Shown here piece after piece: positions 5,095 through 51,028 of a stretch of 64,000 nucleotides of DNA; the first letter of the stretch is position 1, and every line of letters starts with the position of its first letter. Below the pieces are notes generated by a model. That model saw nothing but the letters and a program-made list of their open reading frames with translations, had not been told where the DNA came from and searched no databases. This DNA comes from Minisyncoccia bacterium (GTDB lineage: Bacteria > Patescibacteriota > Minisyncoccia > Phycocordibacterales > UBA5272): contig JBBQKQ010000002.1 of NCBI GenBank assembly GCA_038326985.1, positions 2,978 through 66,977 of the forward strand, read 5' to 3'. Position numbers and translations under genes: made by a program.

Positions 5095-6381
5095 CTATCT
5101 CCACTCTCCAGCACGTTTTGTGAGAGTATTATAAAGTGCTCGAGCAAACCACCAAGGAACAATAAACTCCCATAAGAACATATAATAAAGTATGTAATGT
5201 AGTTTGCGGTTTTCTTTAAGTGAAAGATGATGTCCCATAAGCATAAAAATTATTCCAGAGACCAGAACTGGAACTACAAGAAAATATAGAAAATCTGTTC
5301 GAAAATATATTTTCATAAACATATCTATTAAGTCATAATGGTGAAAAATCATATCTAGTTTTAAAACCTGCCAAGTTTGGTAAAGGTGAATTATCTTTTT
5401 AACAAAAGTGTAGATAGTAAACAAGGCGATATATAAAACCATAACAACTCCCACCCATCCCAGAGGAATTGTAAGCATTGCAACATTGCCATATTTTGGA
5501 CGAAGTATCATATCTTTGTAATCTAAAGAGTTTTGCATGAATCCTTGGGTCCAACGAAGTCTTTGTTTATAAAGCTTGTAAAAAGTATCGGGTGTAGAAG
5601 TTTCAACATAGGCATCGGTAGCAGATACAATTTTCATAAAATTTTTTTGCATACGAAAAGTTATTTCCATGTCTTCGGTATTGTGCGCCGGTTTATAACC
5701 GCCAATTTTTTCAAACACTACACGTCTAAAAAGTGAAAATGGACCAGGTGTAACATGTATTCCATTTATCGCAGAAAATATTCTTTTTAATAGTAGTCCA
5801 AAATTGTACTCTACACTTTGTATTGCTTGAAGGATATTTTCTGGTTTACGTACCACCATCATTGGAGTAACTGCCATCACCTCTTTATTTTCTTCGAATG
5901 GTATGAGCATATTTTTTAAAGCGTCAGGAAAAACAAAAGAGTCAGCATCTAGACATCCAAATATTTCACAGTCAGGGTTTTTCTCAAGCACAAAATTTAA
6001 AACTGTGTGTTTCCCACCATTTTCTTTTTGAAGAACAATAAGTTGGTCAAACTTGTCATATTTTTCCTTGCAGTTTTTAAGAATTTCAAAAGTATTGTCT
6101 TTAGACCCATCGTCAACTGCCCAGATTTTAAATTTGTATTTTGGATAATTTATTGCCAAAAGCGAAAGAATAGTTTTTTCTACCGTCTTACTTTCATTCC
6201 AGCAGGGTACTGCAATTACAACTTCTGGATAGTAGGTTAAGTTTTTTTCTTTTGTTGAAGCAAAAATAGTGTCCCATTCTTCAAAAAGTACAATCAACAA
6301 ATACACTTGTACGTAAAGGGCAATAAAGGTAAATAAATAAATTGGGTAAACCTCCATAAATTTGTCTGTATTATACAACAA
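5095..6381 (-). CDS. Processive family-2 glycosyltransferase (cellulose/chitin/PNAG synthase-like), integral membrane
   Basis: GT2 motifs AVPCWNES...DDGSKDNT and DAD, the QRLRWTQG (QxxRW) processivity motif, and multiple TM helices flanking the catalytic domain. Confidence 0.75.
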   Translation of the reverse strand: MLYNTDKFMEVYPIYLFTFIALYVQVYLLIVLFEEWDTIFASTKEKNLTYYPEVVIAVPCWNESKTVEKTILSLLAINYPKYKFKIWAVDDGSKDNTFEILKNCKEKYDKFDQLIVLQKENGGKHTVLNFVLEKNPDCEIFGCLDADSFVFPDALKNMLIPFEENKEVMAVTPMMVVRKPENILQAIQSVEYNFGLLLKRIFSAINGIHVTPGPFSLFRRVVFEKIGGYKPAHNTEDMEITFRMQKNFMKIVSATDAYVETSTPDTFYKLYKQRLRWTQGFMQNSLDYKDMILRPKYGNVAMLTIPLGWVGVVMVLYIALFTIYTFVKKIIHLYQTWQVLKLDMIFHHYDLIDMFMKIYFRTDFLYFLVVPVLVSGIIFMLMGHHLSLKENRKLHYILYYMFLWEFIVPWWFARALYNTLTKRAGEWR

Positions 6382-19854: not shown

Positions 19855-20265
19855 ATGAAAAAAATAATAAAATATTTTATATCATTTATATCAATTCTAT
19901 TGATTGTGCTGGCTGTAAGAATACACTATTTTGACTCAAGCCCGAGAAATTTAATCACTTTTTCTGGCTCAGGATTTGAACCAGGTTTTTATTTTAGTAT
20001 ATCTACTGAAGACGCAAAAACTGCGGCATTTTCTATGACTACTCAAGAGGGAAATAAATATGTAGGATCATTAAATGTAAAAAAGTTTGAGGATCAAGAA
20101 AAAAATTTTTCAGGGAATGTAAACGATATTGAAAATAATAAAGTTAGTGTAGAAATAAATATTATTAAAAAAGATTGTGGGGAACCCAGTGGAAAATTTG
20201 CCCCTTACACTATAACCCTAAAAATAGGGAAAATACTTTGGAGTGGATGTGCTACACAAAAATAG
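19855..20265 (+). CDS. Hypothetical small secreted or membrane-anchored protein
   Basis: N-terminal hydrophobic helix and a C-terminal Cys pair. No family assignable. Confidence 0.35.
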   Translation: MKKIIKYFISFISILLIVLAVRIHYFDSSPRNLITFSGSGFEPGFYFSISTEDAKTAAFSMTTQEGNKYVGSLNVKKFEDQEKNFSGNVNDIENNKVSVEINIIKKDCGEPSGKFAPYTITLKIGKILWSGCATQK

Positions 20266-20295
20266 AAATCTATATTTTTAGAATTTTTAAAACCG

Positions 20296-20304
20296 TGATA
20301 TAAT
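20296..20304 (+). promoter_or_regulatory. Extended -10 element TGATATAAT for tRNA-Leu
   Basis: TGnTATAAT located 16 nt upstream of the tRNA 5' end. Confidence 0.35.
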
Positions 20305-20319
20305 CATCATCACCAATAT

Positions 20320-20404
20320 GCCCGGGTGGCGAAATTGGCAGACGCACTAGCCTTAGGAGCTAGCGAGGCAACTCATGAAGGTTCAAGTCCTTTCCCGGGC
20401 ACCA
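20320..20404 (+). tRNA. tRNA-Leu (anticodon TAG), type II with long variable arm and encoded CCA
   Basis: Hand-folded cloverleaf: acceptor GCCCGGG/CCCGGGC, D stem GCG/CGC, anticodon stem CTAGC/GCTAG, loop CTTAGGA, 13 nt variable arm, T loop TTCAAGT, 3' ACCA. Confidence 0.8.
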
Positions 20405-20660
20405 AAATGGAACTTAAAATTTTTGAAGAAGCAGAAATGCGGGACGCGCGAAGCGCCTCCCAATGGTTTCCGCCTAGATTTCCCCCAGAATCCGCAGAAG
20501 AATCTGCCAAAAATAAATCCGAATTTGGCGCGCAAGCGTGTGGAGTTTTTTCGCCGAGGAGGAGGTGCGAGCCAAAGATTTCTTCGGCACAGACCTTTTT
20601 AGAAAAAAGGTCTGAATCAGAAGCGATTTTGTCCAAGGATTGAGAGTCTTTTAGCCAGTT
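20405..20660. other. GC-rich (~50%) noncoding-looking segment between tRNA-Leu and the IS remnant. Function unknown.
   Basis: Composition strongly deviates from the ~30% GC surroundings. Local hairpins include GCGCGAAGCGC and CAGACCTTTTTagAAAAAAGGTCTG. The overlapping ORFs on both strands look spurious. Confidence 0.3.
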
Positions 20661-20989
20661 TTGGAAAGGTGTGAGCAAATCGTTCTGCTTATATAAAAAA
20701 GTAGATATATCTTATTTAAGAGATAAAAATTTTTTTTCCCCACAAAAGCAGTCAAAGATGGGTCGGAGTTTTTGTAGTCTTGCAAATCAAGACGATTTAA
20801 TTCCTCTACTCAGTCTTTGGGCAAAGAAGCTTTTTGAATTAAGAATGATAATTGCTAGTCTAGTTTTTCACAACGAAGCTACATTTCGGGACATTTCATT
20901 ACTTTAGATTTTTTTTTCGTATATCTGTAATACGCAAAGTGGATACTTGATCGTGGAGTTAGAAGATGCAAGGAATGTAAAAAAGATGT

Positions 20990-21680
20990 CTCTGTATAAG
21001 TGGACACAGTTTTGGTACATACTCAAATACCAATTAGGCTTTTGTTGCAAGCTATTTGGCTAATCATCTTTTCTAAACAAGGTGTCAATACTATGGAGTT
21101 AGTAAAAATGTTAGGCATGAAAAGTGAGAGATCTGGCTGGGACTTATTGCAAAAAATACTTAGTGCTATGGTCAAAACTTCAGCCAATTTACTATCTAGT
21201 TAGTAGAAATAGACGAGGTTTTCCTAGAAGGCGAGCATGCTGGTAAGCGTGGTTGAGGTGCCTTTGGTAAAACTTTGATACTTGTGATAGTTGAAGACAA
21301 AGTCGAAGCTAGATTCGGTAGAATACGAATGTGTGTCATAAAAAATGCTGAAGATCAAACTTTGTTAAAAGCCATACAAAGTATGGTATCTGTTGGCAGT
21401 ATAATTCGTAACGATCAACACAAAAGTTATTCACTCATAAAAGAGCATTACTACGAGCATAAACCTGTTGCTAAAGTTGTTCATAAACTTGGAGAAGACA
21501 ACACACCACTTGTGCAAAAAGTGGCTTCACTTTTTAAAAGGTGGCTTTTAGGAACTCATCAAGGTGGCATGGAACCTTTGTATATTCCATCTTACCTATA
21601 TGAATACACTTTCCGTTTTAATAGACTAAAATCCAAATCTCGTGATAAACTATTATTCGATAGAAAATCTAATTAAAAAA
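20990..21680 (+). pseudogene. Decayed IS1595-family (ISXO2-like) transposase, split into at least two frames
   Basis: 21000-21203 encodes HTQIPIRLLLQAIWLIIFSKQGVNTMELVKMLGM, matching the F.NTKIPLRKWF.AIYL...KGISS.QLAR HTH region. 21275-21676 encodes DNTPLVQKVASLFKRWLLGTHQGGMEPLYIPSYLYEYTFRFNR, matching the C-terminal HTN.IE..WS.LKR...GTYH.VS.KHL..Y..EF.FRYNNR signature. The catalytic core between them is missing or fragmented. Confidence 0.6.
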
Positions 21681-21734
21681 CCTTTAGTGGTGATAGATGA
21701 CTAGACCAGAAATAAAATAAAAATATGACGAATA

Positions 21735-22243
21735 AAAATATGCTTTATGCTGGGTTAGTCATGTTAATAATCTCTATCTTCTTGTGGCTTTTTACTTTTA
21801 ACAATACTACATAAACTCCCGTTATTACTTAAGACCAAGTGGCTACAACTGCAAATAATTCTGTAGATGCTGGCACAAAGACAGAAATTGTAGCTGATTC
21901 ACAAGTGCCTGTAAAATACATTTCTGGTTATCCAAAGTCTTGACCAAGTGACATTGTAAAGTATCTAAATGGTATTGTAAATACAAAAGCTGAAGATAAT
22001 CTAAATTCTAAAGCAAAAGAAGTAATTGTAATTCTGACAACAGGAGACACAGTGCATACTGTAGTTAAATTTTATTTAAAGAATTTGGTTGCAAATGGCT
22101 GGAAAATAACTGAAGATGGTGCTGGACTTGCCAATCAAATTACTTTTAGAGCCACAAAAGGGGTAAGAACTGTTGGTGCCTACGTTCAAAAAATAACAGA
22201 TGGAAAAACGAAATTGACAATGGGTGTAAATGAGGGAATATAA
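21735..22243 (+). pseudogene. Disrupted gene for a small secreted protein: a signal peptide in one frame, then a frameshift and two in-frame stops (TAA 21830, TGA 21941) before the 22052-22243 ORF
   Basis: The signal-peptide-like start MTNKNMLYAGLVMLIISIFLWLF is in frame 0. The continuous protein-like reading is in frame 2, interrupted only by TAA and TGA. It lies adjacent to the IS remnant. Confidence 0.3.
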
Positions 22244-23849
22244 AAGAAATTATAAAATGAACAAAAAAATATCAAGAGAAGAAAATGCTAGATATGCTAG
22301 GTCGCTTATTGAGGCTTCACTAGACCCACTTGTTACTATTAGCATTGATGGAAAAATTACAGATGTTAATGAAGGTTCAATAAAAGTGACAGGAATTTCC
22401 AGAGAAAAATTAGTGGGAACTGACTTTTCAGATTATTTTACTGAGCCAGAAAAGGCCCGCGCAGGCTATAAACAAGTTTTTGCAGACGGATTGGTGACAG
22501 ACTATCCATTAACGATTCACCATTTGAACGGTACTTTGACTCATGTGCTTTATAATGCCTCGGTGTATACAGATGAAAAAGGGGAAGTTTTAGGTGTTTT
22601 TGCAGCGGCAAGAGATGTAACTGCCAAAAAAGAATTGGAAAAACAATTAGCAGAATTTGCAAAACTACAAGATGAAAAAATTATAAATAGAACCGTGGAA
22701 CTTGCTCAAAAAGTAAAAGAGCTTAGTGAGGCCAAAGCTAAAGACGAGGCTATTTTGCTTTCCCTTGGTGCCGCATTGGTGGTAGTAGATAAAGAAGGGA
22801 AAATAGAATTTGTAAATAAGGCCTTTGAGGAGCTTTTAGGTTGGGCGCAATCAGAGGTGCTAGGTAAATTCATGGTAGAGGTCATACCCCGTGAAGATGA
22901 AGCTGGACTTGAGGTGCCATTTGTGGAAAGAATTTTGTCAGAAGTTTTAGCTGGTAAAAAAATCACAACTTCAAACATTAAGTCTAGCGATTTAGATGCC
23001 CCAGTTATGGTATTACCTCCATATTATTATATCCGTAAAGACAAGACTAGATTCCCGGCAGCAGGGTTTATTAACCCTATTTTACTCAATAAAAGAGTTG
23101 TTGGAGCAGTTGAAATATTTCGCGATATTACAAAAGAAAAAGAATCAGACACAGCTAAAAGTGACTTTATTTCTCTTGCAGCTCATCAACTTCGTACCCC
23201 TCTTTCGGTTGTTTCCTGGTATATAGAAATGCTTTTAGATGGTGATGGTGGTGAGTTGAATGAGATACAAAAAGATTATTTTCAACAAATTTACAACGCA
23301 ACAGAAAGAATGTTAGATATGGTGAACTCGTTACTAAACGTTGCTTTACTTGATGTTGGAGCAGTGATAATTCATGATGAACATACTGATGTGGCATTAT
23401 TAATTCAAGATGTTATGGATGAGCAGAAAAAAGATATTTTGGAAAAAGAAATGGAAATTACTTTTGATTATACAAAAAATTTACCACTTATAAAGATTGA
23501 TCCAAAAAGACTAAGAATGGTTTTACAAAATTTAATATCAAATTCCGTAAAATACACTGAGAAAAAAGGTAAAATAAAAATCAAGATGTCGATCTTAAAT
23601 AAAAATGGTAAAGAAAAAAAAGAGTTGCTATTGTCAGTGGAAGATAATGGTCTCGGTATCCCTTTTGAATTCCAATCTAAAATATTTACAAAATTTTTTA
23701 GAGCAGACAATGTGGTCCAACGATCAACAGCTGGTACTGGATTAGGTATGTATCTAGCAAAAAATATTGTAGAAGCTTCTGGTGGAAAAATTTGGTTTGA
23801 AAGCAAGGAAAATATAGGCACAACTTTTTATGTGACTTTGCCCATGTAA
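22230..23849 (+). CDS. Cytoplasmic PAS-domain sensor histidine kinase. An alternative start at 22257 is possible.
   Basis: Two PAS-like regions, the HisKA H-box FISLAAHQLRTPLSVV, and HATPase_c N/G boxes NSVKYT, VEDNGLGIP and GTGLGMYLAK. Confidence 0.8.
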   Translation: MREYKRNYKMNKKISREENARYARSLIEASLDPLVTISIDGKITDVNEGSIKVTGISREKLVGTDFSDYFTEPEKARAGYKQVFADGLVTDYPLTIHHLNGTLTHVLYNASVYTDEKGEVLGVFAAARDVTAKKELEKQLAEFAKLQDEKIINRTVELAQKVKELSEAKAKDEAILLSLGAALVVVDKEGKIEFVNKAFEELLGWAQSEVLGKFMVEVIPREDEAGLEVPFVERILSEVLAGKKITTSNIKSSDLDAPVMVLPPYYYIRKDKTRFPAAGFINPILLNKRVVGAVEIFRDITKEKESDTAKSDFISLAAHQLRTPLSVVSWYIEMLLDGDGGELNEIQKDYFQQIYNATERMLDMVNSLLNVALLDVGAVIIHDEHTDVALLIQDVMDEQKKDILEKEMEITFDYTKNLPLIKIDPKRLRMVLQNLISNSVKYTEKKGKIKIKMSILNKNGKEKKELLLSVEDNGLGIPFEFQSKIFTKFFRADNVVQRSTAGTGLGMYLAKNIVEASGGKIWFESKENIGTTFYVTLPM

Positions 23850-24287: not shown

Positions 24288-25214
24288 TTATTTAATTCCA
24301 CAAACCTTTTTTAAAGCCTCGGAGTCAGCTTTTGTGATTGTAAACCCTACACCGTCATCAATGTAGTGCATAATAGAATTTTTTTGCTTTAAATGATCGA
24401 GGCCTAGTGCGTGCCCAAGCTCATGAGCTAAAACTCTTTTCAAAGAATTGAAATCTTCATACTCATAAATATCAATTGTGCCATAAGAAGAATAAAGTCC
24501 TTTTTCAAACTCACCTCCAGTATTAGAATTATAAGAATTTACAATAGTATTTACAGAGTTAACTTCTGAATTATGAGTGCTAACATTTTGATTAATTTCC
24601 GATTTTAAAGAATTTAGCTCGTTAATTAAAACCTGCAAATTGTTTTTTTGTTGGTCAAGACTAGCTTTTTCTTGCTCCAATACTTGAGCTTGCTGCACAG
24701 TTGCACCGCCACTATTATTTATGGCTCTAACTTTATAATTGTAAGAATCAAGATTTGTCTGATACTTTTTATTTTCAATTTCGAAAGCTATATTTTTATT
24801 ATTATAATTGGCTTTTAAATCAGAAATGATTTTGCCGTCATTTTTAAGCTCTGCTTCTTTCACTCTAATATTTTCAGCAATTATTTTATTTTTAATTGTG
24901 TCTCGCTGTCTTTTGTCAAAAATAAATCTTATTTTTATTTCACCACCCGCATCATATTTTAAAACTTCTTTCCCAACAGATTTGTTCCAGGCCTCTGCAA
25001 CTGCTTTAGCTTGTAGAACAGCAGTACTTGTAGAGAGATTGAAATTTTTATCTATAGTTACTATTTCAAATGTCTTAGGTGTTTGGTAATTTAAAAAAAG
25101 TCTGGGAATATTTTTAGTTAAATCTGCCAAATTTGTCAAATCTTGTTTTGAGTAAAATTTGTAGGCCAAAAAGATAATAACAAGTAAGAATAAATACTTT
25201 ATTAATTTAAACAT
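24288..25214 (-). CDS. Secreted or membrane-anchored zinc metalloprotease, metzincin/matrixin-like HExxHxxGxxH
   Basis: C-terminal VLAHELGHALGLDH plus a Met-turn-like SIMHY. N-terminal TM helix and a central coiled-coil, Asn-rich region. Confidence 0.7.
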   Translation of the reverse strand: MFKLIKYLFLLVIIFLAYKFYSKQDLTNLADLTKNIPRLFLNYQTPKTFEIVTIDKNFNLSTSTAVLQAKAVAEAWNKSVGKEVLKYDAGGEIKIRFIFDKRQRDTIKNKIIAENIRVKEAELKNDGKIISDLKANYNNKNIAFEIENKKYQTNLDSYNYKVRAINNSGGATVQQAQVLEQEKASLDQQKNNLQVLINELNSLKSEINQNVSTHNSEVNSVNTIVNSYNSNTGGEFEKGLYSSYGTIDIYEYEDFNSLKRVLAHELGHALGLDHLKQKNSIMHYIDDGVGFTITKADSEALKKVCGIK

Positions 25215-50839: not shown

Positions 50840-50920
50840 GCCCGGGTGGTGGAATGGTAGACACGAAGGACTTAAAATCCTTTGACGCAAGTTGTGTGGG
50901 TTCGAGTCCCACCCCGGGCA
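50840..50920 (+). tRNA. tRNA-Leu (anticodon TAA), type II, no encoded CCA
   Basis: Hand fold: acceptor GCCCGGG/CCCGGGC, D stem GTG/CAC, anticodon stem AAGGA/TCCTT with loop CTTAAAA, long variable arm, T stem GTGGG/CCCAC with loop TTCGAGT. Confidence 0.75.
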
Positions 50921-50922
50921 CT

Positions 50923-50994
50923 GGTGTCGTGGTGAAGCGGTAACACTGCGGTCTGCAAAACCGCCATGCGCGAGTTCGATCCTCGCCGGCACCT
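50923..50994 (+). tRNA. tRNA-Cys (anticodon GCA), no encoded CCA, 2 nt after tRNA-Leu
   Basis: Hand fold: acceptor GGTGTCG/CGGCACC (one G-U), D stem GTG/CAC, anticodon stem GCGGT/ACCGC with loop CTGCAAA, T stem GCGAG/CTCGC with loop TTCGATC. Confidence 0.7.
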
Positions 50995-51028
50995 CTAATG
51001 GAATTAAATTTTATGATATACTTTTTCT

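Follow-up and report, generated by a model that had tools for sequence, protein, structure and literature searches.

The 3' ends of tRNA genes are the usual targets of islands that carry a tyrosine integrase. In the searchable literature, the concept nearest to what we describe here is the tycheposon of Prochlorococcus, a small cargo-carrying element found at tRNA genes that builds or remodels adjacent islands and leaves degenerate remnants (10.1101/2020.12.28.424599). Tycheposons are defined chiefly by tyrosine recombinases of one particular clade, replication genes are often among their contents, seven specific tRNAs serve as their sites, and 27 out of 937 carry a large serine recombinase (LSR) (10.1101/2020.12.28.424599). 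We examined a 64-kb stretch of contig JBBQKQ010000002.1 from a Minisyncoccia bacterium (assembly GCA_038326985.1), hereafter the window, in which a tRNA-Leu(TAG) gene is followed by what a sequence-only reading had described as the scar of an old mobile-element insertion. This description holds for the DNA abutting the tRNA, which is the remnant of an LSR element, but not for the copy of an IS1595-family insertion sequence (IS) that had been counted as part of the same scar and is a separate, secondary insertion. Very probably, the locus is a layered scar containing three dead genes, left by a tRNA-targeting LSR element, an IS1595 copy and subsequent decay. In itself it is an ordinary decayed scar, and the interesting part is the family to which the parent element belonged.

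The recombinase remnant beside tRNA-Leu(TAG)

The ~250 nt that follow the tRNA (20320..20404, plus strand) have a GC content of 0.49-0.51 (200-nt windows over 20300-20600), compared with 0.33 for the whole 64 kb, which agrees with the ~50% given in the sequence-only reading, and few other 150-nt windows of the 64 kb reach 0.46 or more. We joined the long open reading frames (ORFs) from both strands of 20405-20678 and compared them by phmmer with 1.84 billion representative proteins, obtaining 135 matches, 45 of them below 1e-10, that cover both ORFs. Matches to the plus strand are short spurious ORFs starting within tRNA genes, while those to the minus strand (best match P0186, 70% identity, E 1.8e-39) are the C-terminal ends of proteins that have Zn_ribbon_recom or Resolvase domains further upstream. 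In public annotation both strands of the GC-rich repeat appear as hypothetical proteins (window 20326-20643 (+); P0189, P0204, P0215, P0227 and P0228), and the plus-strand calls, which begin inside tRNA genes, are a recurring annotation artefact.

Since full-length LSRs align to the window in two minus-strand blocks and their N-terminal ~300 codons are absent, the GC-rich stretch is, by homology, the tail of an LSR pseudogene that is convergent on the tRNA and reads into it antisense. The C-terminal block (20373..20738, approximately residues 408-536 of 550) is found by tblastn with intact LSRs at 52-58% identity and E-values of 1e-37 to 2e-51; it has an in-frame stop at 20712-20714, and its frame runs on into the antisense of the tRNA, the alignment extending over 20738..20322. 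The other block (20741..20950, approximately residues 298-367) comprises the zinc ribbon and coiled coil, is 43-56% identical over 70-73 residues (E down to 7e-14 alone and 2e-51 when paired), and contains in-frame stops at 20879-81, 20855-57 and 20810-12. The two blocks are in different frames, with ~40 coiled-coil codons missing between them, so that what is left is the C-terminal ~250 of ~545 codons with four in-frame stops and one frameshift. With full-length proteins as queries, tblastn found nothing N-terminal of residue ~298 in the window, which is where the catalytic and recombinase domains would be encoded. The remnant aligns to the distal zinc ribbon and coiled coil and to the C-terminal tail, and on its own has no Pfam match; the resolvase domain with the serine nucleophile (PF00239), detected in intact relatives with E-values of 1e-21 to 1e-23, is absent. 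Because of that absence, the window holds a fragment of an LSR family member rather than a functional gene.

The end of the pseudogene (20400..20570, minus strand) is the remnant of a GC-rich terminal repeat, the counterpart, in a longer variant, of the 147-nt IR-R (right inverted repeat) found in intact elements, as seen by blastn and by alignment with the inverted repeat (IR) of locus L128. When the IRs of intact elements were used as blastn queries, 20400-20487 and 20524-20570 matched at 76-81% identity. The remnant makes up the final ~55 codons of the recombinase frame; its terminal TTGGTG is antisense to the CACCA of the tRNA, and a hairpin that is invariant in the family, GGGACGCGC-TTC-GCGCGTCCC, is present in the window with one mismatch. 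The stretch stands out because in this family the terminal ~150 nt stay at ~53% GC and keep their conserved hairpins whatever the GC content of the host, which spans 33% to 58% among the host contigs.

No match to the GC-rich stretch was obtained by blastn against plasmid and phage collections, nor by an exact 21-mer search of viral and metagenome collections; a 19-mer match to one viral contig of 62% GC was dismissed as chance. A possible closing stem (20420-20436 with 20683-20699) was considered as the P1 helix of an RNA or as the terminus of a miniature inverted-repeat transposable element (MITE), and was discarded for lack of a counterpart in the recombinase family. A perfect 11-bp palindrome, CAGACCTTTTT-AGA-AAAAAGGTCTG, lies at 20590-20614 within the recombinase frame, where it encodes DLFSKKV; it is kept in L100 (92% over 25 nt), the sole intact gene of the family in which it was detected, and adds a hairpin upstream of the terminal repeat.

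The tRNA itself is intact and has an encoded CCA (ARAGORN; Rfam RF00005, 55.6 bits), confirming the identification made earlier, and in the junction with the integrated element (attR) it is the half contributed by the target. A promoter-like TTTAGA-16-TGnTATAAT precedes it at 20277-20304. In the relatives L088 and L090 a terminator comes directly after tRNA-Leu(TAG), which in L088 is identical in sequence to that of the window, and the GC-rich segment is absent; the segment is therefore lineage-specific. The rest of the window is densely coding under the standard genetic code and includes a mur/ftsI cluster and rpoB/rpoC. The FtsI of the closest relative is 75% identical to that of the window, and the named matches, at ~37%, come from candidate phyla of the Parcubacteria group. 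For that closest relative (GCA_043742405.1), three independent assemblies all stop just past the SNase gene, equivalent to position ~19830 of the window, so that something repetitive or variable appears to be present there in the sister lineage as well. One contig of this relative, L084, ends in a GC-rich tail of 157 nt (L084:6755-6911) that is unrelated and has no Rfam match.

The IS1595 remnant and the adjacent pseudogene

The claim that fragments of an IS1595 transposase lie in different frames downstream of the GC-rich stretch is borne out by tblastn with P0001, which aligns on the plus strand in two blocks. The N-terminal part (20940..21197, residues 57-142 of 305, 67% identity) starts at residue 57 and retains a recognisable second zinc-ribbon CxxC (CKEC, ~20965) and the helix-turn-helix, that is, only part of the PF12760 zinc ribbon that intact relatives carry. 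The part encoding the DDE domain (21200..21676) is aligned by P0001 residues 144-296 over 21200-21658 with 73% identity, and the ORF at 21275-21676 matches PF12762 (E 2.7e-19, profile positions 40-153 of 153) and scores 70.2 bits with NF033547, for which the cut-off is 75 and the closest intact relative reaches 176. The motif that had been read as HTN...FRYN is in fact DNT...FRFN, and intact relatives have EDNTPLVHR. Stitched together, the pieces give a 248-residue transposase that is 70% identical to the closest intact relative, a 305-residue protein in which both IS1595 domains are present. The window copy is damaged by two nonsense codons, a TAA at 20997-20999 and a TGA at 21254-21256 in place of an Arg codon, and by two deletions, one of 1 nt at ~21199 that shifts the frame and one of 5 nt at ~21656 that alters the C-terminus; it also lacks its left inverted repeat and the first ~56 codons.

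The right terminal inverted repeat of the IS is preserved at 21683..21709, the element ending ...GACTAGACCAG at position 21709, and the available right flank reads AAATAAAA. The 23-nt inverted-repeat consensus of intact relatives is found at 21687-21709 without a mismatch, the sole match in the window at up to three mismatches (0 of 100 shuffles); at that tolerance there is no left inverted repeat in the window, the left end having been deleted. Three intact relatives (L001, L002 and L003), 55-70% identical to the window copy at the protein level, are stand-alone contigs of 958-992 bp, and two of them (L001 and L002, 989-992 bp) end in perfect 27-bp inverted repeats (CTGGCCTAGTCACCTATCACCACCAAC) and begin 45 nt before the transposase start. 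DNA identity to these two is 62-82% from position 20900 on and 40-52% to the left of it. Because its left end is truncated, the copy is the remnant of an IS1595 member and not a complete element. The LSR and IS remnants meet at ~20940-20950, where both are truncated, and the IS copy (~20940-21709) is a second, unrelated insertion that abuts the truncated LSR; we know of no preference of IS1595 DDE-transposase elements for tRNAs. Since L001 and L002 come from the same SRR sample series as the closest relative of the host, the IS lineage may still be active in that community.

Two candidate arrangements for the left side of the IS were rejected. The region 20721-20900, with a TCCCCAC resembling the inner repeat and a weak similarity to FIDNFAT, had been considered as a degenerate 5' end of the IS, and the inverted pair 20851-20864/21700-21713 as its two ends, but this DNA has only the 40-52% identity mentioned above and aligns to the recombinase on the other strand.

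Downstream of the IS lies a third pseudogene (21725..22243, plus strand), for a small membrane-anchored or secreted protein with six intact homologues (166-188 residues, 51-65% identity, E 3e-42 to 3e-29) that share the conserved motifs GYPxSWPSD and GAGLANQITFR. It had been described as broken by in-frame stops and a frameshift; the stops are there (TAA at 21812-14 and 21830-32, TGA at 21941-43), but the pieces share one frame. The TGA occupies the position of the invariant Trp in GYPxSWPSD; both TAA codons are in a variable linker past the membrane anchor. The label PF27226 (AF_1845-like) carried by the intact homologues is a weak precomputed match that a fresh Pfam scan at E < 0.01 did not reproduce. 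In relatives, the homologue of this gene adjoins a gene for an M10 peptidase, and in the window an ORF with an HExxH motif (HELGHALGLDH, 24288-25214) lies 2 kb away; for this reason we take the gene to be chromosomal rather than cargo. The right end of the IS is 15 nt upstream of its start codon, and the insertion may thus have severed the gene from its promoter. At 22230-22260, the longest ORF of the histidine kinase gene that follows (start at 22230) overlaps the end of the pseudogene by 14 nt, and the ATG at 22257, just past the pseudogene stop, is the more likely start. A scan of genome contigs with this histidine kinase gave only distant paralogues, and no synteny was obtained.

Intact members of the recombinase family

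A scan of metagenomes (JGI) with an alignment of the recombinase C-termini yielded at least 419 relatives, for which 80 loci were retrieved, while the same alignment found no relatives in a viral contig collection. Most of the 80 loci contain an intact LSR ORF of 520-550 residues, and the three representatives that were scanned have Resolvase, Recombinase (PF07508) and Zn_ribbon_recom (PF13408) domains followed by a coiled coil. The nearest solved structure is that of the integrase of Listeria phage A118 (PDB 4KIS, E 1.5e-8). The scores do not come near the NCBIfam cut-offs for CcrB (118 vs 900 bits), XisF (84 vs 375), CcrC (67 vs 900) and CcrA (67 vs 700), and the family therefore falls into none of the named subfamilies such as CcrB or XisF. 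Literature searches returned no description of this element family, which is not proof that none exists.

In about 50 of the 80 loci, the conserved 3' end of the recombinase gene lies ~4 nt inside the 3' end of a convergent tRNA gene. The tRNAs targeted in this way represent 21 anticodons and 11 amino acids, with Leu(TAG) being used at five loci. A tRNA-Leu(TAA)/tRNA-Cys(GCA) pair at 50840-50995 of the window is the same kind of site as is occupied in L138 and L152, and is empty here. A TCGAACC motif in the element flank is shifted 4 nt outward relative to the tRNA; the shift may be compared with the offset between the attP and attB half-sites of the A118 integrase, which is 5 rather than 4.

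The last 147-149 nt of the LSR gene recur as an inverted copy 35-180 nt upstream of its start codon. The two arms have a median identity of 98.6% within one element and 84% between elements. Variation within the repeat is greatest at third codon positions, and indels between family members keep the frame; at every codon position, however, the repeat is less variable than the adjoining upstream coding sequence. One 9-bp hairpin of the repeat is invariant throughout the family; a second one has compensatory changes in 3 of 8 pairs and is 95% paired, a combination that none of 500 shuffles matched. As judged from these alignments, the terminal repeat is under both coding and nucleic-acid constraint. 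Many of the recombinase contigs end inside the repeat, which breaks metagenome assemblies, a practical point for annotation.

Past the upstream copy of the repeat there is a conserved motif (TTATTGTACCAAGCTCGAACCTA...) followed by 250-450 nt of GC-rich hairpin modules, and the junction of the element consists of the end of the repeat plus a conserved flank (TTATTGTACCAAGCTCGAACC...). Where the flanks are long, the motif and module are found a second time, in opposite orientation, another 2-3.3 kb outward, and a second pair of inverted repeats (320-410 nt, 89-100% identical) surrounds one to three cargo genes. The loci L100, L116, L107 and L151 have their cargo between the arms of this 320-410-nt pair and their recombinase gene between those of a 147-171-nt pair. 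A complete element measures 4-5.3 kb and carries one to three cargo genes, which vary by locus: an ABC transporter, a membrane protein with a hydrolase, or a PEP-utilising enzyme. Relative to the recombinase, the cargo gene has the opposite orientation in L107 and L151. In L116, a displaced tRNA tail (CGCACCA) and then a terminator-like hairpin are found outside the far copy, and CGCAC is the core common to the junctions, the outcome expected of site-specific integration at the acceptor end. L100 behaves similarly. The far-left site of L151 keeps 47 nt of the repeat and looks attP-like. Some far ends, this one included, resemble a neighbouring element's attachment site in truncated form more than they do a simple junction with the host.

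Taken together, these loci appear to be integrative elements of 4-5.3 kb that use tRNA 3' ends as insertion sites and contain two copies of their attachment region, inverted relative to each other. In L096, L105 and others the 3' end of the gene is joined directly to the conserved motif. Such contigs may represent an unintegrated attachment site (free attP) or mis-joins through the repeat, and because a perfect 147-nt inverted repeat can be mis-joined in short-read assembly, we did not accept them as proof of inversion.

Several further observations were made on the intact loci. Sub-modules of the GC-rich non-coding region are also scattered over other parts of the same contigs as hairpin repeats of 100-160 nt (L139:1-157 and 2098-2207; L137:969-1127 and 5504-5607), similar to small palindromic repeat elements. 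A small gene of the XRE helix-turn-helix type adjoins the non-coding module (L099:1996-2208, L102:4284-4505, L143:682-903, and homologous positions in L101 and L117) and could encode a regulator or directionality factor. Immediately beyond the far end of one element, two ORFs (L100:1697-2631) are homologous to ORFs in cargo position elsewhere (L139:222-1069), in opposite orientation relative to the recombinase. This may point to cassette arrays with hairpin modules between the cassettes, or to decayed elements lying next to one another.

History of the locus and its place among known systems

Judging from the family, site-specific recombination would first have placed a small LSR element at the extreme 3' end of tRNA-Leu(TAG), leaving its recombinase gene convergent on the tRNA and its GC-rich terminal repeat to supply the sequence from the CCA outward. 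Subsequently, if the order is correct, an IS1595-family element would have transposed into or beside the LSR element, and a deletion would have removed the left end of the IS (~210 bp) along with the N-terminal ~300 codons of the recombinase; the same deletion would have taken all other parts of the LSR element, namely its left inverted repeat, non-coding module, cargo and far junction. What remained, namely the LSR part (20373-20950, minus strand), the IS part (~20940-21709) and the adjacent gene (21725-22243), has decayed through nonsense mutations, frameshifts and small deletions. The tRNA is likely the sole active part of the locus.

A number of points weigh against this reconstruction. 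The order of events and the origin of the LSR/IS junction in a single deletion are inferred, no same-species genome with an empty site was found, and neither the far junction nor the non-coding module of the element is detectable anywhere in the window. Moreover, the conserved hairpins of the terminal repeat may leave room for a residual nucleic-acid role, for example as terminator of the tRNA. Lastly, this is a metagenome-assembled contig, and the join at ~20945, or indeed the whole arrangement, could be an assembly chimera: both kinds of element break assemblies, the IS relatives being stand-alone contigs of ~1 kb and many recombinase contigs ending in the inverted repeat, and the contigs of the closest relative stop just upstream of this region. 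We consider a chimera very unlikely, however. Heavily mutated pseudogenes on both sides of the junction would be unique sequence rather than collapsed active repeats, there is no second copy of either element in the 64 kb, and the contig continues for more than 40 kb on both sides with normal gene density. The many inactivating mutations on both sides also argue that the sequence is genuinely old.

An alternative explanation for the GC-rich stretch is that it is a free-standing gene for a structured non-coding RNA, transcribed with or beside tRNA-Leu, whose protein homology is incidental. Its folding z-score relative to shuffled sequence is about -2.6 on either strand, a terminator-like hairpin with a T-run lies at 20528-20552 on the tRNA strand, and the invariant hairpin, the compensatory changes and the reduced variability at all codon positions seen in the family all fit such a gene. 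Nevertheless, this explanation seems unlikely. The earlier reading had left open that the stretch might be a known structured RNA, and no Rfam family matches it: at gathering thresholds only tRNAs were found in the window, and a permissive scan of 20250-21000 (E up to 10) gave, apart from the tRNA, nothing better than E 0.95. The homology stays in frame for ~250 codons, running through AT-rich DNA into recombinase domains, and the most variable positions are third codon positions, with indels in frame. Relatives without the element lack the segment, and the mismatch in the window hairpin and the stops in the frame are as decay would give. The hairpins are thus better read as a second layer of constraint on the terminal repeat of the element.

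That the locus is instead a classical tyrosine-integrase island, bounded by a direct repeat of the tRNA 3' end and with the IS1595 copy as part of its machinery, would fit its position at a usual target and the broken genes after the tRNA, yet we find it barely credible. The suggested direct repeat (attR) was looked for with the last 14-25 nt of the tRNA, at up to three mismatches on both strands of the 64 kb, and no match was found; matches of 12-13 nt to tRNA-Leu lie in the T-arm and are at chance level. Homology to tyrosine recombinases appeared in none of the searches, the ORFs of 20326-22243 have no Pfam integrase match, and the recombinase remnant abutting the tRNA is of the serine type, while IS1595 elements are DDE transposons whose intact relatives here are the 958-992-bp units described above. 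These same units speak against the GC-rich stretch being a passenger or long 5' region of the IS, with 20405-21709 as one element. The two parts do adjoin, and both are foreign to the tRNA-Leu loci of relatives; but the perfect 27-bp repeats of L001 and L002 leave no space for extra sequence, to the left of 20940 the homology is with recombinase genes in opposite-strand orientation, and none of the 80 recombinase loci was retrieved through IS1595 homology, so that we give the one-element explanation hardly any credence. For the gene at 21725-22243, it may be asked whether recoding or readthrough of its stop codons keeps it functional, as all three stops are in one frame and the TGA is exactly at the conserved Trp, just as in codes where TGA means Trp. 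This is highly improbable: TGA and TAA are ordinary stops in the window (7 and 29 of 40 long ORFs), which rules out codes in which TGA specifies Trp or Gly, long genes are uninterrupted under the standard code, the two TAA codons would have to be recoded too, and a TGG to TGA substitution is a single G-to-A change, expected in an AT-rich genome. The layered scar is the reading that we retain.

As for the known systems, the IS copy shares with the IS1595 family its DDE_Tnp_IS1595 domain, a partial zinc ribbon and a right inverted repeat identical to that of relatives of ~990 bp, and differs from it in being 5'-truncated and in having two nonsense codons and two frameshifts. With classical tRNA-linked islands the locus shares the position directly 3' of a tRNA and the foreign or decayed content; it differs from them in lacking a tyrosine integrase as well as any direct repeat of the tRNA 3' end, and the core shared in the LSR family measures only ~5 nt. 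For this genome the event carries little weight, other than that a streamlined Parcubacteria-like genome nonetheless took in, and then eroded, mobile DNA.

Intact relatives of the LSR share the Resolvase, Recombinase and Zn-ribbon domains and the coiled coil with serine integrases (A118, PDB 4KIS; CcrB; XisF), and the apparent integration of the family beside a defined target with a short shared core would fit recombination between att sites. To our knowledge, the characterised serine integrases mostly target idiosyncratic protein-coding sites. On present alignments, the family would depart from them in three ways: it uses many tRNA 3' ends (21 anticodons), the 3' end of the gene lies inside the attachment site, so that the reading frame runs into the tRNA, and the attachment region is duplicated in inverted orientation, the last 147 nt of the gene having a near-perfect inverted copy upstream. 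Tentatively, and with confidence a little short of even, we propose that these are a widespread and undescribed family of 4-5.3 kb elements whose LSR targets the 3' end of essentially any tRNA, whose gene ends inside the attachment site, and whose attachment region is present twice, inverted, with segments found flipped. Because of this inverted duplication, the recombinase and cargo segments are each bracketed by long inverted repeats; together with the conserved hairpins, it is an unexplained feature of their design. If true, and if the enzyme reads the T-loop and acceptor end, these would be serine integrases with a near-universal landing site, the exact tRNA being set by the junction of the element. 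Serine integrases are prized tools for genome engineering, and a family that lands at many tRNA 3' ends would then offer ready orthogonal integrases with predictable targets in every organism, to whose value as tools the compactness of the elements and their easily read junctions would add.

In architecture alone, the arrangement may be likened to the yeast 2-micron plasmid (FLP/FRT), where two unique segments are parted by long inverted repeats that hold the recombination sites, much as the recombinase and cargo segments of the LSR elements are bracketed by theirs. FLP, however, is a tyrosine recombinase and its plasmid is eukaryotic, whereas the LSR elements are integrated in bacterial chromosomes, and flipping by their recombinase is putative. 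Compared with tycheposons, going by the description of the latter, the LSR family is serine-recombinase-only, compact at 4-5.3 kb and built of nested inverted repeats, and the host of the window copy is Parcubacteria-like, from the candidate phyla radiation (CPR).

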